From assembly GCA_963819815.1 (NCBI GenBank), contig CAWFXL010000001.1, positions 1,216,001 through 1,280,000 of the forward strand: DNA of 64,000 bases, in the 5' to 3' direction. Within the stretch, counting starts at the first letter, position 1; each line of letters starts with the position of its first letter. The notes beneath the pieces are model-generated. The model saw nothing but the letters and a program-made list of their open reading frames with translations. It was not told where the DNA came from and did not search any database. Below, in pieces: positions 13,896 to 31,456 of this stretch. The translations under genes and the position numbers were made by a program. Source of the stretch: an uncultured bacterium. GTDB taxonomy: Bacteria > Babelota > Babeliae > Babelales > Babelaceae.

Positions 13896-16028
13896 TTAGC
13901 GCGTTGCTTCTCGTAATCCTGGAAAGAGCGTGTACAGTTCCCCATGTGCAAGGGCATTAGTAATCTTTGATGAAGTTCCCCATGATTTTTTTATAGGTAG
14001 ATACCAGGTAGTACCCTGTGAGTCTGAAAAATAGATACTGATGAACGCTTCATGTTTGATTGCTTCAGTAGTCGGAACGTTTCTTGTTATGATGACGTCG
14101 TGAAGAACGGTCTGGGAGCTTTCTCGACCTCGTATAAGTGGCTTAACAAACTCTAAGGGCAGAAAAAAGGGTGGAGGGTTCTCTCTTTTGCAGGTCAGTT
14201 TTTTAATCCAGAAGACTTTTGGAGTACTGAGTGTGGGAAGCCCAAGAAAACTCATGGCAAGTTGGCCAAGCGATTGCGTACCGGCTTCAAGGAAGTCTAT
14301 TACATGGTAGGCAGGCCCTTCGAGTAACGATACGAAGCTTGGTATCTGCTCAGCAAGAGTCAGTTGTCCATAGCGGGGTTGTGTTAAGAGAGCAACATCG
14401 ACCGAAGTTCCTAGTGCTTTCGATGAAGCAGGAGATACAGAGTCTCCTTTACGTACAACAGTAAACGATGTACTACCTGCTGGGCGCTCTAGAGCAATAT
14501 TTTCAAGACTGTCAGGTACCATTTTACCCTGCTCTGTATAGGGGTGTAGGCAATGAATTAACGTAAATGCATCACGCTTTGGATCACGAGCTTTCATAAA
14601 AAACTCGTCAAAATGAATGGAGGTAAGAGGAGCTAATCTTTTGTTCTTAAGATCGATGGAATCATGGTTGATCCCTTCAATAATTGTTTTTGATGAAGTA
14701 CGACTACTGCGATAAGGAGGAAGCAAAAGCATAGGGGTCGTTTGAAAGGAGACCGTATCACTTAATGAGCCCGCAATACAGTCATACTTTAAGATCTTAG
14801 TATTCCCTTGGTAAGGTGATATTAGATGCTCGCCTCCACCGTAGCAGCTTGTATAGAGAAGAAGTGAGGTTTCAACCTCCAGCTGTAAAAATAGAAGTAC
14901 CTTCTTGAATTCATCTACGGTGAGTGAGCAGATAATCTTCTCATAGCTTTTTGGTAACTGAGCAAGCTTGAGTTCTGTTTTTGTGAGTTCCTCTTGCATA
15001 AGTCGGTGACGTTGAGATACGGTTCTTTTTTCTTCAGGCCGTTGAGGAATGGTGAGTTGCTCTGCGTAGAAGTTCTTAAGAAGGGTAAGATGCTCGATTT
15101 TTCTCCGCTCTGGATAGGAAGGGAGCCCATGCCCCGTAAAATAAATCGCCCAAACGTGAGTGCCCCCTTCTTTTTTAGTTACAAAAATGTTTCTAAAGCT
15201 TTCAACGAGCTGCATTCCATGGGTTATGGGGGTAGGATGAAGTAGCCGCTTGGTATCAATAACATCTTTAAGATGGTTAACTTTTAGGCCAAGCTGTTTC
15301 TCTAAGGGAGTTATAGGAGTTCCAGCATTATAGGTAACGATGTCTGGTGTATTTAAGCGGGGTAATAAAAGGATAAGCTCTTCCGATACTTCTTTTATAA
15401 CGTAGTTTTCTAAGGTGAGAGGTGCGTAGTAACAGAGGGCGTAGGCTTGGAGCTCTTTATGTAAGGTATCTTTTAGTGAGCGTTTTTCTCCACTATACAC
15501 CTGAAGAGTTCTTGGTGCAGATGCTTCTAAGCATGAATGCTTAGCCGCAAGAGTTCTCATTGCCGTGTGTGTATCAGATTGTTGTTTGGAGAGTTCAGTC
15601 AATTCTTTGTGTATCTCGGCATACATTTTTTGAGCGTAGAGACAGTGCTGTTTAAACAAGGAGAGTGAGGGTGCCTGGGTGACGGACTGACGATCATAGA
15701 GGCGCGATAGTTGGGTAAGATCCTTGGTAAGAAAGTCTTCAAATATCTGTTTTCGAGTAAGAAGTGAAAATAGAAGAGACCTGCTCACGAGGATAGGGGC
15801 AACTTTTTGGTATAAAGCAGGAATAAGGGTACTTGTCATAGCTCCAAGCTTGGCGAGGCCCTCAATAACATGGCCTTGGCTTGATCTTTCTGAGCTCCCG
15901 GTTCTAAGGAGCTCTTCTGATTGTCCGTAATCCAAAATAATGATGAGATCATCTGTGGGCTTTTGTGGGATGCCAAAAAGCGTTGTTGTAAAGCCAATAA
16001 GAGCGCCAATAAGAAGTATTTTTTTCAT
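13896..16028 (-). CDS. Secreted hypothetical protein with a clan CD (caspase-like) peptidase dyad
   Basis: Signal peptide; WAIYFTGHG (His300) and LLLYTSCYGG (Cys395). Confidence 0.6.
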   Translation of the reverse strand: MKKILLIGALIGFTTTLFGIPQKPTDDLIIILDYGQSEELLRTGSSERSSQGHVIEGLAKLGAMTSTLIPALYQKVAPILVSRSLLFSLLTRKQIFEDFLTKDLTQLSRLYDRQSVTQAPSLSLFKQHCLYAQKMYAEIHKELTELSKQQSDTHTAMRTLAAKHSCLEASAPRTLQVYSGEKRSLKDTLHKELQAYALCYYAPLTLENYVIKEVSEELILLLPRLNTPDIVTYNAGTPITPLEKQLGLKVNHLKDVIDTKRLLHPTPITHGMQLVESFRNIFVTKKEGGTHVWAIYFTGHGLPSYPERRKIEHLTLLKNFYAEQLTIPQRPEEKRTVSQRHRLMQEELTKTELKLAQLPKSYEKIICSLTVDEFKKVLLFLQLEVETSLLLYTSCYGGGEHLISPYQGNTKILKYDCIAGSLSDTVSFQTTPMLLLPPYRSSRTSSKTIIEGINHDSIDLKNKRLAPLTSIHFDEFFMKARDPKRDAFTLIHCLHPYTEQGKMVPDSLENIALERPAGSTSFTVVRKGDSVSPASSKALGTSVDVALLTQPRYGQLTLAEQIPSFVSLLEGPAYHVIDFLEAGTQSLGQLAMSFLGLPTLSTPKVFWIKKLTCKRENPPPFFLPLEFVKPLIRGRESSQTVLHDVIITRNVPTTEAIKHEAFISIYFSDSQGTTWYLPIKKSWGTSSKITNALAHGELYTLFPGLREATR

Positions 16029-16796: not shown

Positions 16797-17381
16797 ATGA
16801 AAAAGAGTATAGGATTACTTTTTTGTATCATTTCATGTTCATCCATCTGGGCTGAAGAGAAAGAAATTGTCCCAGGGTCTTTGAGAAAGACCGTCAAAAC
16901 TGGCATGGCGGCAGCTATCGGTATCTGCTTAGCTTATGAAGGGTATAAGTGGTACACAAGCCCTTCTGAAGAAGTGTCGCAAGAACAAGTATCTGATGGT
17001 CAAAACACTATTAAAGAAAAAAAGCCTATTACTCTGAATGATCGCATCGAATATTTTGGTATTGGTGCCGGGTATAGTTTGCTCACTGTTGCATCAATAC
17101 TTGCAACCTATAAGTGTGCTATGCTTTCGCTTGATAAAATGTATAGGTTTAATGCTGATCCCGTAAAGCAATTGCATAATTTCTATGATAGAATGGGGTA
17201 TCCTAAATCTGGTGATGAATGGGAAGAAGATTTAGCGGAGGAACGTGATAGAAAAAGGGGTTTTTTATTGGGAAGTCCCTTTATAGGCTCATTAGCAATT
17301 GCCATTCCCTATCTAGCCTATTATAGATATAAGTTTCCGCATGCCGCAGTTGAAAACTTAAAAAAAGCATTTCAGAGATAA
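16797..17381 (+). CDS. Hypothetical exported/membrane protein
   Basis: Signal peptide MKKSIGLLFCIISCSSIWA; three hydrophobic segments. Confidence 0.7.
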   Translation: MKKSIGLLFCIISCSSIWAEEKEIVPGSLRKTVKTGMAAAIGICLAYEGYKWYTSPSEEVSQEQVSDGQNTIKEKKPITLNDRIEYFGIGAGYSLLTVASILATYKCAMLSLDKMYRFNADPVKQLHNFYDRMGYPKSGDEWEEDLAEERDRKRGFLLGSPFIGSLAIAIPYLAYYRYKFPHAAVENLKKAFQR

Positions 17382-17391
17382 GGATCTATTC

Positions 17392-19776
17392 ATGAATTCG
17401 CTCATGATGTTGGCTGCATTGGGTGGTCAGCTTTTATCAGAAACTGATCCTCAAAGCTTGCTAGATGCTCAAGCTTTGGTAAAAGATACCCTACAGCAAC
17501 ACATTGCCGATCCTAAGCTCTTTAAGAAGGCCGCTGTTACACTTTTTAAGTTTGGACAATCTGGAAGCTTCGAGCGAGCATGTTGTGATCAACTTATTGA
17601 AGATCTTGTTAAGGCACATTATCTTGATGCTTCCTCTACGCGCGTTCCTTTTTCTGATGGCGTTTCAAGCATGCAATATGGCTATGTGATTGCCTCAGAT
17701 GCGCTGCGCATTTTTAATCTTGGTCATGGCAATTGTCACCAAGTTGGATGGTCAGGGGCTCGAGCCGTTTTTAATGCGGCGGCGCTTCAACAGCAGCTTC
17801 AATCGGGATTGTTGTCAAGTCGAGCTCTTGATGCTACTTGTCATGATATATATACAACAAACCCAGGGATTAAGAGAAGCATAGAGTATAGCATTTTCCG
17901 ATCTAAGGTTAATGCGGTATGTTCTCTGCTAAGACGGGACCAAAGCAAATTAGATGAAGCTTGGGCGCTGTTAAACAAAGATAAACCTGATACTCTTAAA
18001 GTTCTTTGGCATATGCAACCTGATTATTTCATTAGAAGGACAGGCTTAGATTTTTTAAGGTCATATCATGTTACTAATGCAATTTCATTGTTAGGAAAAG
18101 CCTCTCATGTAGCTCTCAGGGAGGTGAGTGCCGAATTAGTTAAAGTTTGTATAGGGATACTTGATGCAGCCTCTCTTGAGAAAATCGATAAGATGCTCCA
18201 CGATATGTATACCGCAATTGGTGTGCAAAGGAATGTCAGCGATCCAGATTTGAAGAGATTCTTTTTATGGAAAGATGATATCAAAAAGTATAGATCTCAG
18301 ATTATATCACTGGTGCTTACCGGTCGACCTTCCTCTGTTGGAAAACAACTAGCAGCCCTTTGTAAGGCAGATCATGTAAAAGTATGTGGTGAAAAGCTAC
18401 GCAGAGAATTGGCACATCTTGACGCGTCCCCATCTCGCTTTAAGTCGAAAATAAGTGATTGCATCCTTCTTGTACATAAAGCCGTCGCTGAAAATATAGT
18501 ACAGGCGCAAGATGCTTGCTGTACTAAAGACGATCGACTGTGTGTTATTAGTGGAACTATTAATGGTTGTGATTGCCCTTGGGCAAAGACTGCGCTTGCT
18601 CTATTTAATTCCCCCGATTGTGAAATCGATGATGTTATTGATCTATTAAAGAAATCGAGCAAGAGGGGCATTCTAGAGGCTCTCAGCATGATAAACGAAA
18701 GTGAGCATGAAAGGATTCAAATGAGTAGTGAGAAACTTAGAAAGGATCTGGAGGCTTGTAGAAGAGAGAACCTTGCGGGGATGTTCAGAGAGTTGGAACC
18801 GCTAACCACCCCCCAGGTACAAAAGGCTAAAAAGAAGTTGCGTGAAAAGCAACGTGATGGTTTACAGCTCGAAACGACTTTGCGTGAAGAGTTACAACTT
18901 TTGCAGGATATTGAACGTGATAGAATGAGTGCTGTATTTGCTAAGCTTGATTTGGAATGCCCTAAAGCAGGACAATCTTGGTATAAAGAGGAGGGGCTTT
19001 TCCTTGAGCCAGCTGAATTGCAGGAGGCTTTAGCGAAGTTTAAAGATCCAGCAATCGATGAAGCGATAAAAGTTCTTGAAGATGCTGTGACTCAGGAGGA
19101 TGCCCTCAAAGCTCTTGATGCAATACGGAGAATAAAAATAGATACCAAAGATGCGCGAGCTCTTTTAGAATCTGATCATACTAACTTTGAATCTTGGAGT
19201 GTAGCGGATGATTGTATTCTAGCAGGTGAAGCAATACAAGGCATTCGTAAGAACCTACCGGAAGAAAACAGGATAGCTAATCCTGAACATCTGCTTAGTC
19301 TTGTTAGGTTGCCAAATTTAGGCCTACCTCGAGAGAATGTTCATATTCTTGGAGATTTCAAGAACGCGGGACAACTGTTATTTGATCCTACTGATGCTAT
19401 CCTTCCACAACAAGCGGATCTGCTTGGTGAAGGTTGCGAGTCTGATGAGCAAAAAAGTGAACGTGTAGCGAATGCGATAAAAAAGCATTTTGAAGAGCAA
19501 TATCTCGATAAAGATAGCGCAGGGGCACATCACTTTATATGCAAAGTTCAGCGCCCCTTTGAACATTGGGTTCTGGTGTCCTTAGTTAAGTTTGCTGGTA
19601 AAAAACCTATATTGGTACTGCGTGAGACACAAAATTGTCCAGTTGAGTCCCATAGCCAATCATTTCTTGTCGGGTCTGATACTGTACTTGCCTTTCTGTA
19701 TAATACATTTATGCGCCAAGAGGGACAAATTCATGGAAGTTCTAGTACTAGTGGCATGAGTGCGAGCAGATTCTAG
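17392..19776 (+). CDS. Paralogue A of a split papain-like peptidase family; catalytic Cys absent
   Basis: Colinear with 19863..22196 (NPGI..IEY..FR, QPDYFIRR, AGAHHFIC, HWVLVSLVKFA); has WS-GAR where the paralogue has WSCGYR. Confidence 0.7.
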   Translation: MNSLMMLAALGGQLLSETDPQSLLDAQALVKDTLQQHIADPKLFKKAAVTLFKFGQSGSFERACCDQLIEDLVKAHYLDASSTRVPFSDGVSSMQYGYVIASDALRIFNLGHGNCHQVGWSGARAVFNAAALQQQLQSGLLSSRALDATCHDIYTTNPGIKRSIEYSIFRSKVNAVCSLLRRDQSKLDEAWALLNKDKPDTLKVLWHMQPDYFIRRTGLDFLRSYHVTNAISLLGKASHVALREVSAELVKVCIGILDAASLEKIDKMLHDMYTAIGVQRNVSDPDLKRFFLWKDDIKKYRSQIISLVLTGRPSSVGKQLAALCKADHVKVCGEKLRRELAHLDASPSRFKSKISDCILLVHKAVAENIVQAQDACCTKDDRLCVISGTINGCDCPWAKTALALFNSPDCEIDDVIDLLKKSSKRGILEALSMINESEHERIQMSSEKLRKDLEACRRENLAGMFRELEPLTTPQVQKAKKKLREKQRDGLQLETTLREELQLLQDIERDRMSAVFAKLDLECPKAGQSWYKEEGLFLEPAELQEALAKFKDPAIDEAIKVLEDAVTQEDALKALDAIRRIKIDTKDARALLESDHTNFESWSVADDCILAGEAIQGIRKNLPEENRIANPEHLLSLVRLPNLGLPRENVHILGDFKNAGQLLFDPTDAILPQQADLLGEGCESDEQKSERVANAIKKHFEEQYLDKDSAGAHHFICKVQRPFEHWVLVSLVKFAGKKPILVLRETQNCPVESHSQSFLVGSDTVLAFLYNTFMRQEGQIHGSSSTSGMSASRF

Positions 19777-19870
19777 CGATCGACATTCCCCATGTAGCCT
19801 GCCATACTAGAGATGCCGGTTGAAAACCTCAAAAAAGCGTTTCAGCGATAAGGATCTTATTTATGAATTC
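19777..19870 (+). repeat. Diverged duplicate of the 3' end of gene 16797..17381 plus RBS and start
   Basis: GTTGAAAACCTCAAAAAAGCGTTTCAGCGATAAGGATCT..ATGAATTC matches GTTGAAAACTTAAAAAAAGCATTTCAGAGATAAGGATCT..ATGAATTC at ~17349-17399. Confidence 0.85.
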
Positions 19871-22196
19871 CATGATGTTGGCTGCCTTGGGAGGGCAGCT
19901 TTTGTCCGCAACTCTTTCCCTTGAAGAGGCTCAAGTTTTCGTAAAAGATACCCTGCGACTATTTATTACTGATGAAGAAATCTCTAAGAAAGAGATTTTT
20001 AAGAAGGCATCACGTACGCTTTTTAAACTAAAACAATCTGCAAGTCTCGACCGAGAAAAGTGTTGCTTGCTTTTTGATGAGCTTATAAAGGACCACTCTT
20101 CTTGCAAATTGCTTCCTCTTCCCAGAATCATCGATAGTGCAAGATATGGAAATGCAAGTGTTTTAGCATCACAACGAGTTTTCTATCTTCAGCATGATGA
20201 TCAACAAGATGATTCTTGGTCGTGTGGATACCGGTCAATTTTGAGTGCAGCATGGCTCCAAAGTCATCTTAAACCTGGATCGGTTATGTCAAGTACAGAT
20301 TTAGGAAGTATGTGTCGTGATCTGCGTCTGCGTAACCCCGGTATTAGGGGATGTATAGAGTATATTGCTTTTCGGACTAAGATTGAGGAGGTACGCTCTC
20401 TTATAAGAGAAGACCAAAATAATGTGGAAGAAGCTTTAGCTCTGTTGAGTGAACAGGAACCGGATACTCTGAAGGTTCTTTTACAACTTCAACCTGATTA
20501 TTTTATCAGACGGGTTGTTTTGAAATTTTTGAAGGCAAATCTTAAAGATGGTCGTATTGTTGATTCGATTGCATTAATGGGAAAAGCCTCTCATAACGCT
20601 ATTAAGGCTGCGGGTACCCAGTTAGTTAAACTCGTGATGAGAAAGATTACCGTATCGAAAGTTGATGCTCTCCTCAAAGCCATACAAGATGCGCTTAAGC
20701 GCGAGAAGGATTCGGAACTTAAGCGCATTGTTTCAGGAACTCATCTAGAGGCCAGAGTAGAAATGGTTGAACTTATGCTTACTAGCCGACCGCTAAGCTT
20801 GAAGAACCAGATAGCTGCTCTTTGCGAACGAGACAGCGCTGTAAAAGAAAGATATAAACAGCTACGTCAAGAATTGGAACGAGTAAAGTCTCTTAATTTC
20901 TCTGAGTTTTCTGCTGAAATAGAGGCATGCCGTAATAAGGTAAAAGCCGTTATTGAGGCAAATACTCAGGAGATACAAGATGTCCTTTGTGCTAATGATC
21001 CTCGATTGAGGGAAATTAACCAAGTTATTGATCGTTGTGGTGACCCTAAGATACGAGCTGCTCTTGCACTTTTCCACTCTGCTGACTTTGCGCATGATGA
21101 AGTTATTGACCTTTTAAAAAGTTCTGAAATAAATGGTATTCAAGGCGCCCTCCAGCTTATCGATGAAAGTCAATGTACCTTGATTCAAAAGTATATTGCA
21201 GATGTTACAGAGCGCTTGGCTAAAAATGAGCCTGAAGGCCCCGCAAGCATAGGTGGTTCATCTTCTGATTCGGCAGTTGAAAGGGTTTTAGGGCTTCTTC
21301 AAATGGCTGTAGATCTTCTTAATGAGAAGAGGGTGGATGCTGAAAAGAATATACGGGAGGCTCGAAACGTTTGGCGGGAAGCGGTTAATGAAAGGTTTCT
21401 TAATGCTTTTTCTAGGCTTGGGTTTGGGTGTCCTAAAGCCGGTGTGCTTACTGTTCCTACCGAACAATTGCGTGGTTATGTAGAGAAGCTTAGGGATCCC
21501 CTCATAGATCGAGCTAAAAGGGCTCTTGATAATTTACAACCTGGGGATGATATGCGCAATGCTGTTGCAGCAATAAGGGCTATTAGGGATATAACCACGA
21601 AAGAAGATGCAATAGCTCTTTTACAATCTGATCATACAAAGGGAAATGCCTGGACAGTGAGTCCTGTGTATAAACTTGCTTGTCAAAGGTTAGTGGATAT
21701 TAAGAGCGCTTTACCTGAATATGAAGATGAAGCTTATGTGGACCACCTCATTAAGCTAGCCAGAATGCCAATGCTTGGGCTGCCTCAAGACCATGTCCAT
21801 ATGCTTGGGGATTTTGCTAATCGTGGTGATGTTGCTAATCGTGGTCAGCTGTTGTTTGATTTTTTAGACCCCTTTCTTTCTCGTATTTTAGATTCTCTTG
21901 TTGACGCTTGCGAGACACAAGATCAAAAAAGTGACCGTGCTGTGGATGCGATTAGAGAGCATTTTAAGGTCAAATATCTAGATACTAATACAGCAGGTGC
22001 ACATCATTTTATATGCCGCATTAATGGGAATCACTGGATTCTCGTATCTTTGGTTAAATTTGCTGATAGAAAGCCTATATTGGTAGTGCTTGATTCGTTC
22101 AATAAGCAAATTGAGTCTAATAGTGGATCCGGCAGTGTTGGTGCTGATACGGTGCTTGCCTTTCTCTATAATAAATTACTAGTCCCTCTTGGGTAA
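19863..22196 (+). CDS. Paralogue B: putative papain-fold cysteine peptidase (deubiquitinase-like) with a large helical insertion
   Basis: QQDDSWSCGYR (Cys121) ... NHWILV (His724) ... VVLDS (Asp744). Confidence 0.65.
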   Translation: MNSMMLAALGGQLLSATLSLEEAQVFVKDTLRLFITDEEISKKEIFKKASRTLFKLKQSASLDREKCCLLFDELIKDHSSCKLLPLPRIIDSARYGNASVLASQRVFYLQHDDQQDDSWSCGYRSILSAAWLQSHLKPGSVMSSTDLGSMCRDLRLRNPGIRGCIEYIAFRTKIEEVRSLIREDQNNVEEALALLSEQEPDTLKVLLQLQPDYFIRRVVLKFLKANLKDGRIVDSIALMGKASHNAIKAAGTQLVKLVMRKITVSKVDALLKAIQDALKREKDSELKRIVSGTHLEARVEMVELMLTSRPLSLKNQIAALCERDSAVKERYKQLRQELERVKSLNFSEFSAEIEACRNKVKAVIEANTQEIQDVLCANDPRLREINQVIDRCGDPKIRAALALFHSADFAHDEVIDLLKSSEINGIQGALQLIDESQCTLIQKYIADVTERLAKNEPEGPASIGGSSSDSAVERVLGLLQMAVDLLNEKRVDAEKNIREARNVWREAVNERFLNAFSRLGFGCPKAGVLTVPTEQLRGYVEKLRDPLIDRAKRALDNLQPGDDMRNAVAAIRAIRDITTKEDAIALLQSDHTKGNAWTVSPVYKLACQRLVDIKSALPEYEDEAYVDHLIKLARMPMLGLPQDHVHMLGDFANRGDVANRGQLLFDFLDPFLSRILDSLVDACETQDQKSDRAVDAIREHFKVKYLDTNTAGAHHFICRINGNHWILVSLVKFADRKPILVVLDSFNKQIESNSGSGSVGADTVLAFLYNKLLVPLG

Positions 22197-22412
22197 CTGC
22201 TCTGTGGAGCGATTGTGTGCACCGCTCTATGCTGCTTGGTTGCAGATAAGTCCGTATGGCTGCTGGTATGGCATTTTCCTCCATCTATACTAAGTGTGTA
22301 TGCACTAATTCAACCGACACGTACTCCTTTATTACGATTTATAGGACCTGTTGCTCGCAGGGAGGGGCGTGCTATACTAACGATAATTAACTCTAGTAAC
22401 CTAGGAGAAATT

Positions 22413-23738
22413 ATGAAAAAGATAGTACTATTAGTAAGTATTTTTGGTACAGCATCTATGTATGCAGCCGCACCAGTAGTGAACAATGCGGATGAGTTTA
22501 CTGAAGAATTAAAGAGACAGTTACGTAGCCAGGGGCATAGGGACTGGGAGCAAATTTTTGGTGCGGATTGGAACAAAGCATCAAAAGAAGAAAAAATTGC
22601 TATGATGGAAGGTGCTTTCGCAAATAATAGAGTGCGATGGGACCTTTTAAAGGTTACTGAATCTATCAGAATGTTGGCAAAGCCAAAGACATTAGCATCC
22701 CTTAGTTTAGCATCATTGGGTATCTTTGCAGCGTGGCATGCAACGTCCTTAGTAAAGGATGTGGCGAAACACTACCTTCTTATACCACCGCTTTGCAATC
22801 CTTCTGAGTCTTCGATTCGAGGATGGGATAGCACGGTGAAAGACTTTTTTGTGTATGAGGAAAAAAAGTTCCCTGTACGAAGTGACGTGGTACTTACAGA
22901 GCATCTTAAAGAACGCTTTGCAAAGCTGAGTCACGCGATTACGAATGCAGCCAAGAATGATGTAAACTTTAGACATTATCTTCTGTATGGTCCTCCAGGA
23001 ACGGGTAAAACCATGATGGCAAAAGCAATTGCGCAGGAAGCAGGCCTCGAGCATATGTATTTCTCTGCGGCTAACCTTGAGCAGTATAGTCTTGAAGAGG
23101 GCGTTCAACAGATTCGGCATCTTTTTGAGTATGCAAAATCCTATCCTAAAAAGCTTATGGTTATTATGGATGAAGCAGATAGTATCTTTGCTCATCGTGA
23201 TACTTGTTCTGATAAGGTCCGTACCTTCTTGAACTTAATATTAACGTATACAGGTACTGAACAGAGCAACTATGTGGTAATAGCTATTACCAATAGACCG
23301 CAGGACTTTGATGAGGCTGCGTTGAGCCGTTTTGGGGTGAAGATCAAGCTTGATGCCCCAGGGTTTGAAGAGCGTAAAATGATGTTTGCGAATTATGCCC
23401 AAAAATACTTTGTGGATTCACATACGGTTAATCGTGATAAACGTTCAATCTTCCAATGGTTATTCAGTAGAAAGCCTGCTGAAAGAATGCCATTGAAGAT
23501 CGCAGAAGACGTATTTACTGATGAAACATTCTTTGATCGACTTGCAAAAAGAAGCGAGGGGCTAGCAGGACGTGAGATCGCTGACGTTATATCGAATGTG
23601 CAGCATGATGCGTATGGAACCCCAGATCATACGGTCACCCAAGAAATGCTCTTGAATGCTCTTGAAGATAAGTTTCAAGATATAGCGACGATGAAAGACT
23701 TTACGAAGGGACGTGGCAGAGCAACAGCTGCAGCCTAA
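22413..23738 (+). CDS. AAA+ ATPase, ATAD3-like, with an N-terminal signal peptide
   Basis: AGGAG RBS, ATG 22413, MKKIVLLVSIFGTASMYA; TM segment; FRHYLLYGPPGTGKTM, MDEADSIF, TNRPQDFDEA. Confidence 0.85.
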   Translation: MKKIVLLVSIFGTASMYAAAPVVNNADEFTEELKRQLRSQGHRDWEQIFGADWNKASKEEKIAMMEGAFANNRVRWDLLKVTESIRMLAKPKTLASLSLASLGIFAAWHATSLVKDVAKHYLLIPPLCNPSESSIRGWDSTVKDFFVYEEKKFPVRSDVVLTEHLKERFAKLSHAITNAAKNDVNFRHYLLYGPPGTGKTMMAKAIAQEAGLEHMYFSAANLEQYSLEEGVQQIRHLFEYAKSYPKKLMVIMDEADSIFAHRDTCSDKVRTFLNLILTYTGTEQSNYVVIAITNRPQDFDEAALSRFGVKIKLDAPGFEERKMMFANYAQKYFVDSHTVNRDKRSIFQWLFSRKPAERMPLKIAEDVFTDETFFDRLAKRSEGLAGREIADVISNVQHDAYGTPDHTVTQEMLLNALEDKFQDIATMKDFTKGRGRATAAA

Positions 23739-23876: not shown

Positions 23877-24245
23877 ATGCAAAGATTATTTATGCGATGG
23901 TCTGTCGTGCTCAGTGTCGCACTATTTTGTGTAGGTAACGCAGGTCATCTGCACGCCAAAGTTATCACGTTGGTTAATGATGTGGTACATAATGGAGTGG
24001 GGAGTCCTTTTGAGATACCTGAAAGAGTTCACGGTGATAAGCTCGTTATAACATCAACCTCTCATAAAGCGGTAATTATAAGAAAGGGTAGCACGTGGGA
24101 CCTTTCGGATCTATCTTCGACCTATAAGACTATAGAATTTGCGGGAAATGCTCGCTTAGTATGTGAACCAGGCTCTCGACTGCATGGCACCGGTGGGGTG
24201 TTACGCTTTGTAGATGAGGCTCGTTTTATTGTGGGGAAGGAGTAG
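23877..24245 (+). CDS. Small secreted beta-rich hypothetical protein
   Basis: GAGG RBS; signal peptide; TTGACA at 23822 upstream. Confidence 0.7.
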   Translation: MQRLFMRWSVVLSVALFCVGNAGHLHAKVITLVNDVVHNGVGSPFEIPERVHGDKLVITSTSHKAVIIRKGSTWDLSDLSSTYKTIEFAGNARLVCEPGSRLHGTGGVLRFVDEARFIVGKE

Positions 24246-24246
24246 T

Positions 24247-26601
24247 ATGAGCTTGAGCAAGGGAATCATACTGCTTGTCTCCACGGTGTCTTTGTGTAGT
24301 GCGGGAAGAACGGTTACTGATGGGTTTCAAAGTAAATTTGTGCGACCTTCAGTTGATAGACCCACTCCTGATCCTAATCCCTGCTTTCGATTTTTTGATG
24401 TCTATCTGCCTGATGAGTTTGATACGAATCCTGAGATGACCTTTCCTATTGTGTATCATCTTACTGGTTTGGGCGGTACCAATACTCAGTATTCGATGTG
24501 CGATCAGATGGTGATGGATGAGATGCTTGCAAATAAAGAAGTCGTTCCGATGATTATTGTTGCACCAGATCCTAGTACTCTTAATTATAGCAGCAGTTTT
24601 TGGACCGACTCTAATCTCGTGCAAGATCCTACTGAGTCATTTAATAATATGTTTGAAAAATACATAATTGATGAACTCATTCCGTTTGTAGATGCAAAGT
24701 ATCGTCAAAAGACAACTGCTGACGGTGATGCAGGTCCCTTTCGTGCCGTAATGGGTCAATCTATGGGAGGGTATGGTTCTCTATTCTTTGGTATCAAACA
24801 TCCGGAGATGTTTTGTGGGTATGCAGGAGATAGCGCAACAGCTTTTTGGTTGCTCAATACAAACTTAGCCAGTCCCCCAGAGCCCGGGTTTCCTGATGGC
24901 AATCCTATGTTTAGCTTTAGCAAACTTCTTATTCCAGAACTTTCCCAATCAGTGCCTCCGGGAAGACTTGAGTTTGGCAATGGTGATCTTACGGCCGGCT
25001 TTTTTTCTCAGGCAGGAGCATTTAGTCCGATTGTGGAAGGTATTGGGCCATCCAATTGTACCGATGAGACGAATGCCTGTCTTGCTTCAGCACCATTTTG
25101 TTTAGCCTATCCTTTTCTTATGGCTGACCCCGCTACTAATGTTCCTCAGATTGTGAATGGTAGTTTTGTAGTGAACCAACCGATTCTAGATGTCTGGCAG
25201 ACTTTTGATCCCTTTGTATTTCTTGATACTGCTGATCCTGCAACTCTTAATTCTAAGGCAATTTACCTTGATGCGGGTGATGACCTTGTAAATGAGATCG
25301 TTGATAATGTCGGAGCACATTATTTTTCCGCTAAGTTGAGCTCTATGGATGTAAATAATGAATTTCTTTTATTTTGCGGGGGACATACATCATGCACTGC
25401 ACCTCCTATGCTCTACTGTTACCGTTTTACGACGAACCTAAAATTATTCTCAGGTAAGTTTTCAGATGCGGGAATGCCACCAGCTAAAACGGTTATCACG
25501 GGTGACATGACGATTGAACTTGCCGATAGCTCAGTCATGAGCATAACTGATAAAGCGTTGCTTGCTATTGAGACAGTGGATGTATTTAAAGTTTCTAGTA
25601 CGTCAAACGTAACATTTAACATTACTGACTCTGCGCGTCTTGAAATTGGAACTGATGACATACTTGGTGGTGGTCTGCAGGTGGGTAATGCATTTGGTAA
25701 AGCAAACTTGATCTTTGATCATGCTCGTGTTGATGATAGCATAACATGTACTTTGAATATTAATGGGCCAGGTGCGGTCCTTCAGATAGGTAAGCAAGGG
25801 TATCTTGGCTTTGGCATTGGTGTTATTGGTAATAATACCGATGTTGCTAACTACTGGGGACTAACCTCTTTAACTAATGTTGATAGTGTAGTACTTTCAT
25901 TTAACGAAGGACGATTTGAACATAACCAAATAGCTTCAGCATTGGCTGATCGGGGTTCCCTATTAGCACTTGGGGTGAGTAACGCGTATGAGATGATGCT
26001 AAATCCTGAGACCTTCGTCATATCAGGGGGAGCCAATCTTGCAATGATCACCGAAGCAAATCGTATTCATCCTCTTGTACAGGATACTGCTGGTGTTGTC
26101 GACCCAGGTGGAATTCGTAACTGCATTGTGCCAGTACCGGCTCAAGAATTTGATGACTTTTATGGTCCTCCGAAGGGTTTATATAACTCCGAGACCTTCT
26201 CCCAAAACTTACTAACCGTCGGTATCTTATCGTCATCACTGATGCTGTTCGATACTGACAAAGAGCCTCTTGCTAACCCTGCAACGCAGGACCAACTCTA
26301 TACCTTCCTTGCTGTTCAAAATTACTTTGATCAAGGAAGAAAGCGTGCACCTATCAATGAGCTTGATGGGCAGTTAGTTGTTGGCTATATTACGCCTGAG
26401 ACCGTTACCACGGGTGGTGTAACCACAACGACCATGCACATTAATCGCTTTGTGGTGAACCAAGATGATCCCTGTAATGCGTTAACGAACCCCTTTCCCA
26501 CCGATAAAATTCTTGAAGAGGGTGCTGTAGGTATTGCGCTAGCAACTATCGATGGTGAGCTGCAGGTGGTGAGGCTCTTCGATCTTAATCCAGTGGTCTG
26601 A
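24247..26601 (+). CDS. Secreted esterase (alpha/beta hydrolase, Fes/antigen-85-like) fused to a beta-rich C-terminal domain
   Basis: VYLP...PIVYHLTG, nucleophile motif GQSMGGYG, YLDAGD, GGH; C-terminal ~390 aa Gly/Asn/Thr-rich. Confidence 0.8.
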   Translation: MSLSKGIILLVSTVSLCSAGRTVTDGFQSKFVRPSVDRPTPDPNPCFRFFDVYLPDEFDTNPEMTFPIVYHLTGLGGTNTQYSMCDQMVMDEMLANKEVVPMIIVAPDPSTLNYSSSFWTDSNLVQDPTESFNNMFEKYIIDELIPFVDAKYRQKTTADGDAGPFRAVMGQSMGGYGSLFFGIKHPEMFCGYAGDSATAFWLLNTNLASPPEPGFPDGNPMFSFSKLLIPELSQSVPPGRLEFGNGDLTAGFFSQAGAFSPIVEGIGPSNCTDETNACLASAPFCLAYPFLMADPATNVPQIVNGSFVVNQPILDVWQTFDPFVFLDTADPATLNSKAIYLDAGDDLVNEIVDNVGAHYFSAKLSSMDVNNEFLLFCGGHTSCTAPPMLYCYRFTTNLKLFSGKFSDAGMPPAKTVITGDMTIELADSSVMSITDKALLAIETVDVFKVSSTSNVTFNITDSARLEIGTDDILGGGLQVGNAFGKANLIFDHARVDDSITCTLNINGPGAVLQIGKQGYLGFGIGVIGNNTDVANYWGLTSLTNVDSVVLSFNEGRFEHNQIASALADRGSLLALGVSNAYEMMLNPETFVISGGANLAMITEANRIHPLVQDTAGVVDPGGIRNCIVPVPAQEFDDFYGPPKGLYNSETFSQNLLTVGILSSSLMLFDTDKEPLANPATQDQLYTFLAVQNYFDQGRKRAPINELDGQLVVGYITPETVTTGGVTTTTMHINRFVVNQDDPCNALTNPFPTDKILEEGAVGIALATIDGELQVVRLFDLNPVV

Positions 26602-27964
26602 TTACCTAAGTGTGGTAATCGTTCCATCAGTATCTAAAAAACCCTTATAATAATAGGAGATATAAAGTATAGGGCGCTGCCATTCGATAGCTTTAAAGCG
26701 GGCAGCAAGATACATAAGATGCCGAATGTAGGCCGATTTTGCCCAGAAATCATTTGAGAGTTCTGCGATGACCGCATCTGGATACTGATCATCAGGGCTA
26801 TCGCTGAAGAAAAGTTCAGAGCATACGTAGGGTACCAATGCTACGCCCGGTAAGACGGCAAAGGGAACGCGGGGATTTGTGGACGGTTGTACGATAGGAC
26901 CGACTCCATGAAATAGGGTGCGTATAAAGCTTACGTTATACCAACTTATTGATTCAGTAACTGCCATCGTATGCCGTTTATTGAAGCTTTCTTTAATCTG
27001 CCCATCAGAGATCCAGTACACCGTATTACGGTATTGATCATCTTCCCATTTAAAAGCTCCCACTAAGATCTGTATTGGCTTGCCAAGAGATTCAGTATCC
27101 CAATAGGTAGCAAGTTCGCGAGCGGTATCAAGATTCAGCTTAAATAATGAAGATTCGGGAAGGATGACGACCTCGAGGTCCGGGTACTTCGCTATGAGTG
27201 ATCTGATATCATCTTTGATTGCCTCTATCGATGCCATAGGTTGAGGTACCGGCAGGAATTTTTTTTGAAGTGTGGCTACTTTGTGAAGCCATTGAGGGGG
27301 AGTTTGGGGAGGCTTTGCAGACATACACTGTAAAACCCAGGGAAGCATTCCGATAAGAGGGCATATGCATCTTAGGAGAGTACTCTTTGTGAGTAACGGG
27401 ATCGTGAAGGCAGCATTGGTAAGTAACAGAAACCACATGAGAATACCTTTACCCAGTACAGGCATCCATGAAAGAAGTGCTGGCTGTTCTGCCAGGGGAA
27501 GCAGTGGATACAGAAGAAAGTATCCTTCCCAATAATTAAACATGCTTAAACTTAAATGTATAACCCAATAAAAGTAGAAGCCGGTGGTGAGTATCCACAC
27601 GCCAAGTCGTGCATAGGGAGAAACAATCTGTGCTCGCGTAAGGAAGCGTTGAGGTGAGATAAAACCATACCCCTCCAAAGAATCCTTGAATAATGAGAAT
27701 AACTATTGAAGGAATGATACGGGCCCAAACAGGGCCTATTCCTAATAAAAAGAGCGTCTGAAGTATTCCGGCTCCTCCTAGGGCCCAGAGAAGGGCGCTG
27801 TAGAAAAAGCCATCTTTAAAAGTGAGATTCTGGCGTGAGCCAAGATAGAATAATGGCACGAAGCAGATGAAAGAGCCCCACCATAAGGAAGGGCTCATGA
27901 TAAGGGCAAGCCCATACACGAGTGCTGAGCTTGCGAGTATCATCCATCTGTTTACGGTCTTCAT
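26602..27964 (-). CDS. lnt: Apolipoprotein N-acyltransferase (Lnt)-like; one +1 frameshift at ~27652
   Basis: N-terminal TM region (27536..27964) plus nitrilase triad ILPES / FNKRH / YVCSE; removing one base gives a 453-aa ORF. Confidence 0.7.
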
Positions 27965-28560
27965 GCAGCTTCCGCATTTTCTGCTTTCTCTGCAGCCGCT
28001 GCTCCTGTTAGGTCTTTGGTTCCTGCAAGGAAAAGAACTGGCTTATTCTTTACCGGATCCATATAGACGCCAGTACCGTCAGTTTTTAGGGTGATATCCG
28101 CTTTGAAATCACCAGCAAGTTCTTTATGGAGTAATCCAGCATAGGTCATTTTACCGATTTCAACCCACGTTCCTGCGGGATCACTCGCAAAACGGCGATA
28201 GATTCTCATAAGTGTTTTACCAGCAAGTCGAGTACCGGGCCTTTGTCGTTTGTTGTCAAAGGCGATAGTTACCAGCTGACCTTTAGATTCACCCGTTGTT
28301 GGGGTGAAGCTATAGGCAGTTTGAGTACCAGGCTCTTTTGGAAGAGTGAGGGTGACCTTTTTTTCTTGAGTGATCAAACCCAATGAGGTAATTTGATTGC
28401 TCGGTATAGTAAGGGTCATCGTTTCACCAATCGCATTCAAAACCACTGTTTGTTCGCATTGAGAATTTTGCCCACAGGGTTGAAGTACTGTTTTACTATT
28501 GTCTGAATTTGCAAGTAACCCACAGGGGACCGCAAGTAAAGTTATAAGTAATTTCTTCAT
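27961..28560 (-). CDS. Secreted protein, 'NAIG/RPGT' paralogue family
   Basis: Signal peptide; C-x5-C-EQTVVLNAIG; RPGT; overlaps the lnt-like start (ATGA). Confidence 0.75.
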   Translation of the reverse strand: MKKLLITLLAVPCGLLANSDNSKTVLQPCGQNSQCEQTVVLNAIGETMTLTIPSNQITSLGLITQEKKVTLTLPKEPGTQTAYSFTPTTGESKGQLVTIAFDNKRQRPGTRLAGKTLMRIYRRFASDPAGTWVEIGKMTYAGLLHKELAGDFKADITLKTDGTGVYMDPVKNKPVLFLAGTKDLTGAAAAEKAENAEAA

Positions 28561-28581
28561 TATAGTTTCCTTTAATATATG

Positions 28582-29139
28582 TTAGATGTTTACAGTAAAT
28601 GAACCATCTGGTGATAGCGTTACAGAAACTGGTTCAAGAACCTGATTAGTTTCTACGTAGAGGATATTATTTCGTAACCACTCATTTTTCGCATCATTAT
28701 AACGGTAGAGTTCAACGATATTAAAGTCTTTCCCTGCAGTTAACTTCCTTCCTTCTGCTGTTTGATACGTAAAGTATCGAGTACCAGGACGGGGTGTGCG
28801 CTTCATTTCAAGACCTAAGTATACTGTTTTGCCACCTTGGGTAGTAAACTTATATAAAGTCTTAGCGCCCACTTTTGATGGGATCTGCAGCTTCTCATTG
28901 GTTGCTGAGGTTACCGTGCCAAGATCTATAAAAGATGCTGCACCAGGATCCACATCAAATGTTGATCCTATTGCATTGAGAGTTTGAGTTTGGCTACAGC
29001 TACCGCCACCTAGGCAGGTTTGAACACCGATAAGTGCCTTAATGTCAACTTTTGTGCTATCCATTGCTCGCATATCTCTGACGTTATACGCCAGTGCTGC
29101 GAAGGTAAGTGCGGTGATGATTTTGAATTGGTTCTTCAT
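28582..29139 (-). CDS. Secreted protein, 'NAIG/RPGT' paralogue family
   Basis: CLGGGSCSQTQTLNAIG; RPGT; close duplicate of 29735..30307. Confidence 0.8.
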   Translation of the reverse strand: MKNQFKIITALTFAALAYNVRDMRAMDSTKVDIKALIGVQTCLGGGSCSQTQTLNAIGSTFDVDPGAASFIDLGTVTSATNEKLQIPSKVGAKTLYKFTTQGGKTVYLGLEMKRTPRPGTRYFTYQTAEGRKLTAGKDFNIVELYRYNDAKNEWLRNNILYVETNQVLEPVSVTLSPDGSFTVNI

Positions 29140-29157
29140 GGTTATTCCTTTTTGTGA

Positions 29158-29712
29158 TTATGGGTTAATAGTTATAGGAAATGAAACTGGGTCGACGCCC
29201 GTTTTTACGAAGATTATGCCTTCGCGTGACCAGTCATTTTTGGCGTCATTATACCGGTAGATTTCAATGATATGATAATCCTTTCCTGCAGTTAACTTCT
29301 TACCGCCTTTAGTATGTAAGATGGGGAAGTCAGCGCCCGGAGCTGGGACGGGCTTCATTTCAAGTCCCATATGCACCGTTTTACCGTCTTTGCGGGTAAA
29401 TTTAAAGAGTGATTGTGCGCCCACTTTTGCGGGAAGCGTAACTATCTCGACCTGTGTTGAGGTTACTTTCCCTAGATCTTTATACACGGCAGTTTTTGGG
29501 TCAATCGTAAAGATTGACCCAAGTGTATTAACTGACTGATCTGGACTACAGCTGCACATGCGGTTATAAAGGACAGTTGTATTTCCAACTTTCTTAGTGA
29601 AGTACGTGTATATCCTTTCTGCAAATGAGATAACTGATGGTAAGCATAGAAGGATGATCGCTATCCTTTGCCACCATATTACCTTTTCTAATTGCTGAGT
29701 ATCCATGTTCAT
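29158..29712 (-). CDS. 'NAIG/RPGT' family paralogue with a replaced, membrane-anchor-like N-terminus
   Basis: C-terminal two-thirds align with its neighbours (GLEMK, LTAGKD, YRYNDAKN.W); N-terminus is unrelated. Confidence 0.75.
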   Translation of the reverse strand: MNMDTQQLEKVIWWQRIAIILLCLPSVISFAERIYTYFTKKVGNTTVLYNRMCSCSPDQSVNTLGSIFTIDPKTAVYKDLGKVTSTQVEIVTLPAKVGAQSLFKFTRKDGKTVHMGLEMKPVPAPGADFPILHTKGGKKLTAGKDYHIIEIYRYNDAKNDWSREGIIFVKTGVDPVSFPITINP

Positions 29713-29734
29713 TCCTAGCTTGCTGGTGTGTTAT

Positions 29735-30307
29735 TTATATCGTTCCGTGTTCTCTTACGGTAAAAGCACCATCAGGCGATAACGTTACAGGAAGTCGCTC
29801 TAAAACCTGATTGGTTTCTACATAGATGATATTATTTCGTAACCACTCATTTTTCGCATCACTATAACGATAGAGTTCAACGATATTAAAGTCTTTCCCT
29901 GCGGTTAACTTCTTTCCTTGTGCTGTTTGATAGGTATAGTATCGTGTGCCAGGACGGGGTGTAGGCTTCATTTCAAGACCTATGTACACCATCTTTCCAT
30001 CTTGTGTAGCAAACTTATACAAAGTCTTAGCTTTAACTTTTGATGGGATCTGGAGCATCGCACTCGTTGGCGAGGTTATGGTACCAAGATCTATAAAAGA
30101 TGCTGTCATAGGATCTACATTAAATGTTGACCCTATTGCATTAAGAGTTTGTGTTTGGGTACAGCTACCGCCACCTAGGCAGGTTTGAACACCGATGATT
30201 GCTTTAATATCAACTTTTACACCGCCACCCAATGCTTGGGCATCCTTGACGTGACAAGCCAAAGCAGCGAATGTAAGTGCTGTGAGGATTTTGAATTGAT
30301 TCTTCAT
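29735..30307 (-). CDS. Secreted protein, 'NAIG/RPGT' paralogue family
   Basis: MKNQFKILTALTFAALA; CLGGGSCTQTQTLNAIG; RPGT. Confidence 0.8.
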   Translation of the reverse strand: MKNQFKILTALTFAALACHVKDAQALGGGVKVDIKAIIGVQTCLGGGSCTQTQTLNAIGSTFNVDPMTASFIDLGTITSPTSAMLQIPSKVKAKTLYKFATQDGKMVYIGLEMKPTPRPGTRYYTYQTAQGKKLTAGKDFNIVELYRYSDAKNEWLRNNIIYVETNQVLERLPVTLSPDGAFTVREHGTI

Positions 30308-30398
30308 GATTAATTCCTTTTTGTTAGATCTGTGTTTATGATGTTATTTGCGCTACTGTTCTCTATCTCAGGATGATCTTCAAATAGATCATCTTCTC

Positions 30399-30947
30399 TT
30401 ATGTGTTTATCACTGTCTGCCCAAGAAGAAACTGAGTGTCCTGTGCAGTGAAGGTTCCATCTGGCTTTACGCTAAATGGCATGTTCAGATTTCCAAAGTT
30501 GAGATTTCCAACCTCGGTCCAGGAGCCTTCTTGATCAACATTTTTTACATTCCTATACATTTTAATAACCATCTTGCCGAAGTCTTTGGTGCCGGGTCGC
30601 TGTGCTACATTATCAAAAACGAGATACACCGTTTTACCTGCAAGGTCATAACCTTGCGAAGGAACAAAGCTATAGGCCGTTCGTGTTCCAGCGGTTACCG
30701 GCAGCACAAGATCTTGATCGGGTTGTGAGAGATCAAGAGGCTGAATTTTAAGCTGACTAAGTGGTATGTTTACCTTGTCTCCAATAGCATTGACTACCTG
30801 CCTACATTTTGTTTTTGGACCACCTTTAACACCAGTACAGGACTGTATCGCTACCCGTATGTTTAATTTAAGATCAAAAAGGGCAGCTTGTATGGAGGAT
30901 ACTCCCAGTGCTGAGCCGGTTAAGATTAAGAGCATATATCTAGTCAT
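30399..30947 (-). CDS. Secreted protein, 'NAIG/RPGT' paralogue family
   Basis: Signal peptide; C...CRQVVNAIG; QRPGT; WTEVG; KPDGTF. Confidence 0.75.
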   Translation of the reverse strand: MTRYMLLILTGSALGVSSIQAALFDLKLNIRVAIQSCTGVKGGPKTKCRQVVNAIGDKVNIPLSQLKIQPLDLSQPDQDLVLPVTAGTRTAYSFVPSQGYDLAGKTVYLVFDNVAQRPGTKDFGKMVIKMYRNVKNVDQEGSWTEVGNLNFGNLNMPFSVKPDGTFTAQDTQFLLGQTVINT

Positions 30948-31003: not shown

Positions 31004-31456
31004 TTAGGGTAATTTCATGCGTATATTAGAATTACATGTAGCTCCCGGAGCACCATTACAGATTACATGCTTATCTCCGATTGTAAGGTTTGTCTGACAG
31101 GTACCATCGGCTGGAGCCTTACATCCTTGATTCATAGATCCCCATCGAATGCATTTTCCTGATTCATCATTGGTAATGCAGGGAATGTTTGCATGTGTCG
31201 TACCTTGACTTGTGGCTGACGGAAGTATCGCATTGCATGACTTGCCCGCTTGAGCGCTACATGATGCTGAACCCAAAAAAGGAACCGAAACGTTTATTGA
31301 ACAGGGACCCTGGCATCCTTGGACCAAGCCGCCCCAAGAGGTACATTCGCCTTTACTATTTCTTTGATGACAGGGAACCTCAACGGTTACTGAGTTTTCA
31401 GCGGCTTCAAGATAGCCGAGTGTCATACTGAGTACGAACAAAACTTTCATCTTCAT
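31004..31456 (-). CDS. Secreted Cys-rich protein with two 6-Cys repeats
   Basis: PC...G.C..WG...QGC...C...C...G..CN occurs twice. Confidence 0.75.
   Translation of the reverse strand: MKMKVLFVLSMTLGYLEAAENSVTVEVPCHQRNSKGECTSWGGLVQGCQGPCSINVSVPFLGSASCSAQAGKSCNAILPSATSQGTTHANIPCITNDESGKCIRWGSMNQGCKAPADGTCQTNLTIGDKHVICNGAPGATCNSNIRMKLP

Follow-up and report, generated by a model that had tools for sequence, protein, structure and literature searches.

Two long open reading frames (ORFs) lie in tandem on the forward strand of the window, the stretch of 64,000 nucleotides analysed here (contig CAWFXL010000001.1, positions 1,216,001 to 1,280,000), which belongs to the 1.64-Mb genome (G000) of an uncultured Dependentiae bacterium. 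Dependentiae are obligate intracellular parasites of protists, widespread and almost uncultured. The first ORF, copy A (17392..19776, +), codes for 794 amino acids and is a predicted pseudoenzyme paralogue of the second, copy B (19863..22196, +), which codes for 777 amino acids and is predicted to be an active cysteine isopeptidase; the ORF list agrees exactly with the coordinates given for both in an earlier reading of the letters alone (the sequence-only reading). Alignment of the two proteins with BLASTP gave 320/799 identities (40%) at an E value of 3e-163, colinear from end to end and far beyond chance, which establishes the colinear paralogy proposed in that reading. For positions 17392-22196, no RNA data sets were listed, and one DNA run was, with a 0.10 share of words.

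The putative nucleophile of B, Cys121, is part of the motif SWSCGYR, which starts at residue 118 (TCT TGG TCG TGT GGA TAC CGG) and has its TGT codon at 20223-20225 (+). Gln115 (codon 20205-20207, +) stands six residues N-terminal of Cys121, and His724-Trp725 (22032-22037, +) and Asp744 (22092-22094, +) are all present in the C-terminal part. Comparison with the aligned stretch of A, GGA TGG TCA GGG GCT CGA (GWSGAR, 17746..17763, +), revealed a clean one-codon loss of the Cys, with His at the position of the oxyanion residue Gln115 and Ala at the position of Tyr123. A keeps the His725-Trp726 strand through to Glu745 (19564..19626, +), where LRET stands in place of LDS and Glu replaces the Asp found in the VLDS of B; the orthologue of A in G001, a genome of the same genus, retains LLDS at this place. 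The missing Cys codon and the Glu in place of Asp had been described in the sequence-only reading and are confirmed from the sequence.

Each protein can be divided into two terminal pieces and a helical middle. In B, the N-terminal catalytic piece (residues ~90-170, 20130..20372, +) was delimited from the secondary structure of the model, assigned with DSSP, and from motif conservation in the family, while the helical insertion (residues ~171-619, 20373..21719, +) was delimited by alignment with compact relatives and by its all-helical DSSP assignment. The C-terminal catalytic piece (residues ~620-777, 21720..22193, +) contains the strands 712-720, 724-732, and 739-744. As the sequence-only reading had anticipated, the ~600 residues between the motifs of B are almost all helical in the model. 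The insertion includes a four-helix bundle (residues ~420-521), and its structural matches are generic helical bundles only. The corresponding parts of A are the N piece (residues 1-170, 17392-17901, +), the helical insertion (residues ~171-620, 17902-19251, +), and the C piece (residues 621-794, 19252-19773, +).

Family members and the pseudoenzyme

An exhaustive HMMER scan of 1.84 billion protein representatives with B as the query identified 41 proteins at the threshold of E<=1e-3, with 16 at <=1e-10 and 8 at <=1e-30. A few of these relatives are giant proteins of 780-800 amino acids, and most are compact (240-380 amino acids). Scans of A and B against Pfam, NCBIfam, and the sequences of the PDB gave nothing above threshold, and the candidates considered by a word-indexed protein search included B itself, A, and one orthologue with B as the query, and three proteins with the compact-family profile.

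The compact relatives match B in two stretches, residues ~100-150 around the Cys motif and residues ~690-775 in the His/Asp region, with matches in the C-terminal piece covering residues 624-775. P0011, the compact relative nearest to B, aligns with both of its ends, so that B residues ~171-619 form one contiguous extra block; the spacing between the Cys motif and the His/Asp motif is only ~165 residues in the compact forms. In a tree of 16 members, all giants used form one clade (SH-aLRT 96), within which the clade of A groups with that of B as its sister (SH-aLRT 97). The tree, the alignments, and the structure models together support the view that the giant forms represent a single clade of the family, in which ~450 helical residues were probably inserted into a papain-like catalytic domain. 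The catalytic core had been described as split by a large insertion, and this description stands: the compact relatives lack the insertion, and solved deubiquitinase (DUB) folds align across residues 106-760 of the B model. For another giant, P0022 from G008 (797 amino acids), matches to B are limited to the two catalytic pieces, and its middle part may be an independent insertion.

The family shares a common layout, which consists of a short hydrophobic N-terminus, ~100 helical residues, the Cys motif Q-x2-G-W-[ST]-C-G-Y-[WR], ~165 residues, and the His/Asp motif HF[IV]C-x4-6-HW[IV]L[IV]S-x-VK-x5-P-x-[LM]-x-[IL]-LDS-x-N. Residues C124, G125, C282, H290, W291, P304, and D310 are invariant in 20/20 compact members, and Q118, six residues before the nucleophile, is present in at least 90% of them. 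When the giants are included (34 members), the Trp after the His remains invariant, and Cys, Gly, His, and Asp are each found in at least 90%, in line with the expectation that the catalytic residues are conserved in homologues. Cys, His, or Asp has been lost in A, P0002, P0030, and P0039.

Several members show unusual architectures. P0016 (538 amino acids) carries two complete catalytic domains in tandem, P0039 (355 amino acids) an apparent His/Asp piece followed by a degenerate domain, and P0030 (738 amino acids) a weak trypsin-like region (E 0.18) fused to a family domain without Cys and His. Nearly all members, A and B among them, open directly (residues 1-20) with 10-20 uncharged hydrophobic residues that lack a basic Sec n-region, and the conserved motif acidic-x-[IV]-[ST]-[LI]-x-[QE]-A comes next. 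Model confidence is low in this stretch, which may serve for secretion or anchor the protein in a membrane. Two relatives end in a MYND zinc finger of eukaryotic type (E 1.5e-8 and 4.4e-9), and one contains a ubiquitin-interacting motif (UIM) below threshold (E 0.076 and 0.14). These MYND and UIM-like fusions suggest eukaryotic partners.

With B as the query, matches were found in 13/61 related genomes, and the profile of the compact family detected members in 52/261 Dependentiae genomes and 36/145 genera (34/189 among good-quality genomes). Canonical C48 proteases are rare in the phylum, being found in 2/201 genomes searched.

The orthologue of A in G001 is 90% identical, of the same length, and likewise devoid of the Cys, and the orthologue of B is 85% identical and was the sole locus returned by the related-loci search with B alone. 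The ratios of nonsynonymous to synonymous substitution rates (dN/dS) were calculated between G000 and G001. For A, dN/dS was 0.25 over the whole gene (794 codons, dS 0.21), 0.37 in the N piece, 0.17 in the insertion, and 0.25 in the C piece; for B, the values were 0.28, 0.21, 0.34, and 0.175, respectively. The most constrained part is the insertion in A and the catalytic pieces in B, and this shift of constraint fits a binding, non-catalytic role of A. Taken together, A is a conserved predicted pseudoenzyme that has lost its nucleophile and evolves under purifying selection, in agreement with the catalytically dead sibling supposed in the sequence-only reading.

The gene order around the pair is the same in G001 (a 710-amino-acid gene, m128, m194, A, B, an AAA+ ATPase, a 122-amino-acid gene, and an esterase-domain protein). 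G003 has a single copy of 802 amino acids at the A/B locus, and G005 has a compact copy of 337 amino acids adjoining the AAA+ gene, indicating that the duplication is recent relative to the genus and that the insertion is variable within the genus.

Predicted fold and comparison with known proteases

Structure models were generated by AlphaFold2 with family alignments. The model of B (predicted local distance difference test [pLDDT] 89.4, predicted template modelling score [pTM] 0.84) has the same layout as that of the compact P0011 (pLDDT 87.1, pTM 0.88). In both models the Cys opens a helix (Cys121 in helix 121-134 of B and C124 in helix 124-141 of the compact form), and in B, His724 opens strand 724-732, which follows the HFIC strand, while Asp744 closes strand 739-744. 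This predicted placement, with Cys on a helix and His and Asp on strands, is that of the canonical papain fold. Structural comparison of the compact model over residues ~90-332 retrieved almost exclusively papain-fold DUBs and ubiquitin-like-protein proteases (ULPs), with Z scores of 5.8 for M48, 5.6 for Josephin, 5.5 for VTD, SnOTU, and UfSP1, 5.4 for OTUB1, 5.2 for Mug105/ZUFSP, and 5.1 for ATG4A. A Lot OTU enzyme and bacterial Josephin-like enzymes were further matched to the catalytic region, and CE-clan enzymes aligned solely to the C-terminal half of the model. Searches of the ESM Atlas gave scores of <=0.85 to clusters of C58 YopT, Herpes_teg_N, C39, and ShET2, which serve as leads only.

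The sequence-only reading had related the Cys motif of B to the C78 proteases ZUP1 and UfSP, and this kinship was not upheld. The motif W-x-C-G-Y around the Cys is indeed shared with UfSP1/2 and ZUFSP/ZUP1, but in UfSP proteases the Asp precedes the His, whereas the A/B family has His before Asp. The C78 model PF07910 matched B with only 13.5 bits against a gathering score of 29.1, over residues 101-133 only (E 0.056), and did not match A; among the 34 members, it matched 3, with a best E value of 0.019 and all far below the gathering score. According to Hermanns et al. (PMC7391069), DUBs and Gly-Gly-cleaving ULPs show a 477-fold enrichment of a conserved aromatic residue directly after the catalytic His, a residue that C78, C54/ATG4, and ZUFSP lack. 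The His-[Phe/Tyr/Trp] criterion of >90% in that text compares with an invariant Trp and a His present in at least 90% of the 34 members here. The invariant His-Trp favours a protease cleaving after Gly-Gly, of the type acting on ubiquitin, NEDD8, or SUMO, and disfavours a C78/UFM1 link.

In its motifs the family most resembles the CE clan (Ulp1/SENP C48, ElaD/SseL C79, and YopJ C55), with which it shares a strand-His-Trp...Asp-Ser hairpin and a Gln-x5-Cys-Gly motif. The hairpin of the relatives was matched by PF22102 (ElaD/SseL-like_C) in 5/34 members (best E 4.5e-6), by PF02902 (Peptidase_C48) in 2/34, and by PF03421 (YopJ) in 1/34 (E 8.9e-4, 19.3 bits, cut-off 24.4). Two relatives, P0015 with 27.1 bits and P0016 with 27.0 bits, came up to the PF22102 cut-off of 27, while A and B had no match. 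Membership of the CE clan was rejected on the order of the residues: the clan order His-Asp-Gln-Cys is reversed in B (Gln115-Cys121...His724...Asp744), residues 745-777 of B contain no Cys, and the Cys lies 600 residues before the His, or ~165 in the compact forms, which share the order Gln-Cys...His...Asp. An hhalign comparison of the family with three canonical C48 domains from the same phylum aligned 25 columns, confined to the His/Asp hairpin, with E 0.011 and a probability of 3.9%, by which CE homology is not established.

The order Gln-Cys...His-Trp...Asp/Asn is that of Josephin (C86), and the family resembles in this respect the Josephin enzymes, the bacterial Josephin-like DUBs and clippases, and the herpesviral M48/VTD proteases. 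It differs from them in that none of the corresponding Pfam models is among the 25 families listed for the 34 members, and in an extra conserved N-terminal region of ~100 residues. The OTU enzymes LotA-D of Legionella, also from an intracellular bacterium, share with the giants a papain fold in which the Cys precedes the His and the His is followed by an aromatic residue, and a large helical module between the Cys helix and the His sheet, described in PMC12501173 as an extended helical insertion in the OTU fold. They differ in that the A/B family has no sequence match to OTU models, that the ~450-residue insertion is far larger and restricted to one family clade, that the phylum is Dependentiae, and that activity here is predicted. 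We therefore file the A/B family as a previously undescribed cysteine-peptidase family with CE-like motifs and Cys-before-His order, outside the CE, C78, Josephin, and OTU groups.

Proposed function and alternatives

We propose that A and B are a lineage-specific tandem duplicate within a new Dependentiae family of papain-fold peptidases, in which B would hydrolyse (iso)peptide bonds after Gly-Gly in host ubiquitin or ubiquitin-like proteins and A would act as a non-catalytic binder; we give this reading a probability of about 0.55. The ancestor would have been a compact protein of ~240-380 amino acids, with N-terminal helices, the Gln-x5-Cys motif at the start of a helix, ~165 further residues, and a sheet of three strands that bears His-Trp and Asp. 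One clade would have gained ~450 helical residues in the loop that follows helix two of the Cys lobe, with both pieces still folding together. B would then be an isopeptidase with the triad Cys121/His724/Asp744 and Gln115 as the oxyanion residue. Trp725 would serve as the S2 'gatekeeper', and because it would close the S2 pocket, B would accept Gly alone at P2, so that its substrate in the protist host may be ubiquitin, NEDD8, SUMO, or a comparable modifier that ends in Gly-Gly. Binding to the substrate, the target, or the membrane could come from the helices at the N-terminus and from the insertion of 450 residues. A, without the nucleophile and the oxyanion Gln, would bind without cleaving, mainly through its insertion, as a partner, decoy, or regulator.

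The lifestyle of Dependentiae and the domain fusions in the family are compatible with a target in the host. Deeg et al. (PMC6561590) report signal sequences on 44% of the proteins of a cultured Dependentiae bacterium, whose many secreted proteases, together with ankyrin proteins, are its presumed effectors. The window also codes for an ankyrin-repeat protein.

Several observations weigh against the proposed Gly-Gly-directed activity of B in the host. The scans of A and B against Pfam, NCBIfam, and PDB sequences yielded no significant link to any protease family, and the two top hits of the family profile among PDB sequences, both Ulp-type proteases aligned at the Gln-x5-Cys-Gly motif, had non-significant E values of 0.34 and 0.38. 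The best Z scores for the catalytic domain, 5-6, are under the level of ~8 recommended for structural comparison, and Foldseek searches gave no match at E<=1e-3 either in the PDB, with the B model and the compact model, or in BFVD with the compact model, where the best hit (4.7e-3) is an uncharacterised Edafosvirus protein that serves as a lead only. That the triad residues converge is deduced from the secondary structure of the models and from alignment ranges. According to PMC7391069, the His-aromatic motif is also found in YopJ-type/CE acetyltransferases and in the Gly-Gly leader peptidases of C39, with C57 as a further exception. The N-terminal hydrophobic stretch of A and B does not conform to a classical Sec signal, this analysis identified no dedicated system for the secretion of effectors, and the dN/dS values come from a single species pair only.

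A refinement of this proposal, which we regard as less likely than not, is that A and B form a physical heterodimer through their helical insertions, with A regulating or targeting B. Besides the strong constraint on the insertion of A (dN/dS 0.17) and the retention of the tandem pair in G001, complex prediction with residues 165-625 of A and of B gave 'weak support', with a score of 0.36 (runs 0.94, 0.36, and 0.00), while the best of three controls scored 0.00; contact agreement was at least 0% and partner pLDDT at least 57. The mark used is reached by 116/157 solved complexes and 2/215 mismatched pairs, but scores of <=0.60 comprise 18/157 of the former and both passing mismatches, and a pass at such a score is more often wrong than right unless the complex was likely beforehand. 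In addition, the three runs disagree completely, the prediction covered the insertions only, and paralogues tend to score through likeness. The single copy at the G003 locus indicates that such a partnership would not be ancestral.

A broader interpretation would make the family a novel Dependentiae-only class of ubiquitin and ubiquitin-like proteases, with CE motifs in un-permuted papain order as a living link that joins the CA and CE clans, P0016 showing the duplication intermediate, a 450-residue helical targeting module in one clade, and an obligate enzyme/pseudoenzyme pair of B and A; as a whole, this appears doubtful. A model of circular permutation through a tandem-domain intermediate is cited in the part of PMC12501173 available to us, and the tandem domains of P0016 are, by analogy, a lead to the kind of intermediate invoked there.

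It is unlikely that B is a cysteine peptidase unrelated to ubiquitin, such as a C39-like peptidase for Gly-Gly leaders or for processing, or a secreted protease of general type that acts on host or bacterial envelope proteins. The presence of the His-aromatic motif in C39 and the abundance of secreted proteases in a Dependentiae genome, both taken from the partial texts cited above (PMC7391069 and PMC6561590), are consistent with this alternative, but neither an ABC-transporter fusion nor an ABC-transporter neighbour was seen in the loci compared, the DUB/ULP structural matches are more numerous and slightly higher-scoring, and the MYND and UIM-like fusions point toward eukaryotic partners. 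Quite unlikely is the same fold and triad with another chemistry, B being an acetyltransferase of the YopJ/LegCE type, another acyl-transfer enzyme, or a deamidase or transglutaminase-type enzyme acting on host proteins. The CE models that match the His/Asp hairpin (PF22102 5/34; PF03421 1/34) include acetyltransferases, DUBs cannot be told apart from acetyltransferases of the CE clan by the aromatic motif according to PMC7391069, and papain-fold deamidases of ubiquitin and NEDD8 (CIF/CHBP) exist according to the review PMC13720258. The YopJ match, however, is below the Pfam cut-off and concerns one member only, the Cys-before-His order is foreign to YopJ and the CE clan, and the best structural matches are isopeptidases rather than YopJ. 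That neither protein is an enzyme, with motifs that are structural relics of a scaffold or adaptor family, would agree with the losses of Cys, His, or Asp in A, P0002, P0030, and P0039 and the Asn in place of Asp in two further G000 paralogues, but is very improbable given Gln, Cys, His-Trp, and Asp at canonical papain-fold positions in at least 90% of 34 diverse members and the strongest constraint of B in its catalytic pieces (dN/dS 0.21 and 0.175).

If the family is active, it would add a phylum-wide group of DUBs/ULPs (52/261 genomes, 36/145 genera) and would offer a natural experiment on the tolerance of the papain fold to a 450-residue insertion, on the origin and retention of a pseudoenzyme, and on how the arrangements of CA and CE are related; if it is inactive or not directed at ubiquitin, it still makes a clean new family of cysteine peptidases for MEROPS and Pfam. 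DUB-like effectors that combine a papain fold with a helical insertion are already known from the Lot enzymes, and pseudo-DUB paralogues are known as well; what is new is the family itself, how large the insertion is and where it lies, the arrangement of the motifs, and the phylum, with every function a prediction. The 2026 review PMC13720258, in its accessible part, assigns bacterial DUBs to the OTU, USP, VTD, Josephin, and CE types plus a few unaffiliated enzymes. Full-text searches, judged mainly from titles and the starts of abstracts, revealed no description of a Dependentiae deubiquitinase, and the literature on CE-clan permutation, on DUBs of Chlamydia-like bacteria and Simkania, and on Josephin-like clippases did not describe the A/B family in the portions seen, supplements that possibly list candidates lying outside the search.

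Paralogues and neighbouring genes

The source genome contains six family members: A, B, one just upstream of the window, and three distant ones. The upstream paralogue (G000:C1:1212476-1213657), ~2.3 kb from the window, has His-Ala instead of His-Trp, and two of the three distant paralogues (C1:639815-641281, C1:642709-644097, and C1:919715-921178) have Asn in place of the catalytic Asp. Several of the paralogues in this genome start with signal-peptide- or lipobox-like segments.

Upstream of A lies m194, a gene for a small membrane protein of 194 amino acids (16797..17381, +), which is syntenic in G001 and more weakly in G008; its last ~90 nucleotides form the leader before A. Comparison of the A-B spacer (19777-19862) with 17301-17391 by blastn gave 35/39 and 15/17 identities, and the spacer holds a copy of the m194 tail as a relic mini-ORF of 12 codons (MPVENLKKAFQR*, 19813..19851, +). 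The stop codon of the mini-ORF is located 11 nucleotides before the ATG of B, and that of m194 10 nucleotides before the ATG of A. Both the spacer copy and the m194 tail are kept in G001 with synonymous or conservative changes, while the A and B proteins are only 40% identical. These sequence comparisons suggest that the duplication unit began inside m194 and that the leader is under selection, as a site of translational coupling or as a ribosome-binding region.

Downstream of B, an AAA+ ATPase with a hydrophobic N-terminal segment is encoded at 22215..23738 (+; PF00004, E 9.7e-28), and its best NCBIfam matches are CdvC/Vps4-like, PAN, and FtsH proteins. The AAA+ gene adjoins a family member in G001, in G003 (the single giant), in G005 (the compact copy), and more weakly in G027, which belongs to another genus, and a functional link between the ATPase and the protease family is possible.

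Other genes of the window were recorded as side observations. The gene at 13896-16028 (-) codes for a 710-amino-acid protein that carries a signal peptide, matches nothing in Pfam or NCBIfam, and is syntenic in G001 and G003; by eye, we take its His-Gly and Ser-Cys-Tyr-Gly-Gly motifs to be reminiscent of clan CD (caspase/legumain-like) peptidases. A 795-amino-acid secreted-looking protein (24214-26601, +), which is syntenic in G001 and G003, combines an esterase domain at the N-terminus (PF00756, E 7e-20) with a long family-less C-terminal part. Five paralogous ORFs of 182-199 amino acids with signal-peptide-like starts and no Pfam match form a tandem array at 27961-30947 (-), perhaps extending to 31456; their pairwise identity is 26%-80%, and a sixth ORF (31004-31456) has no BLAST match to the array. 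Two AAA_14/DUF4143 ATPase genes are located at 1153-2106 (-) and 33572-34723 (+), the first of which lacks most of the ATPase domain.

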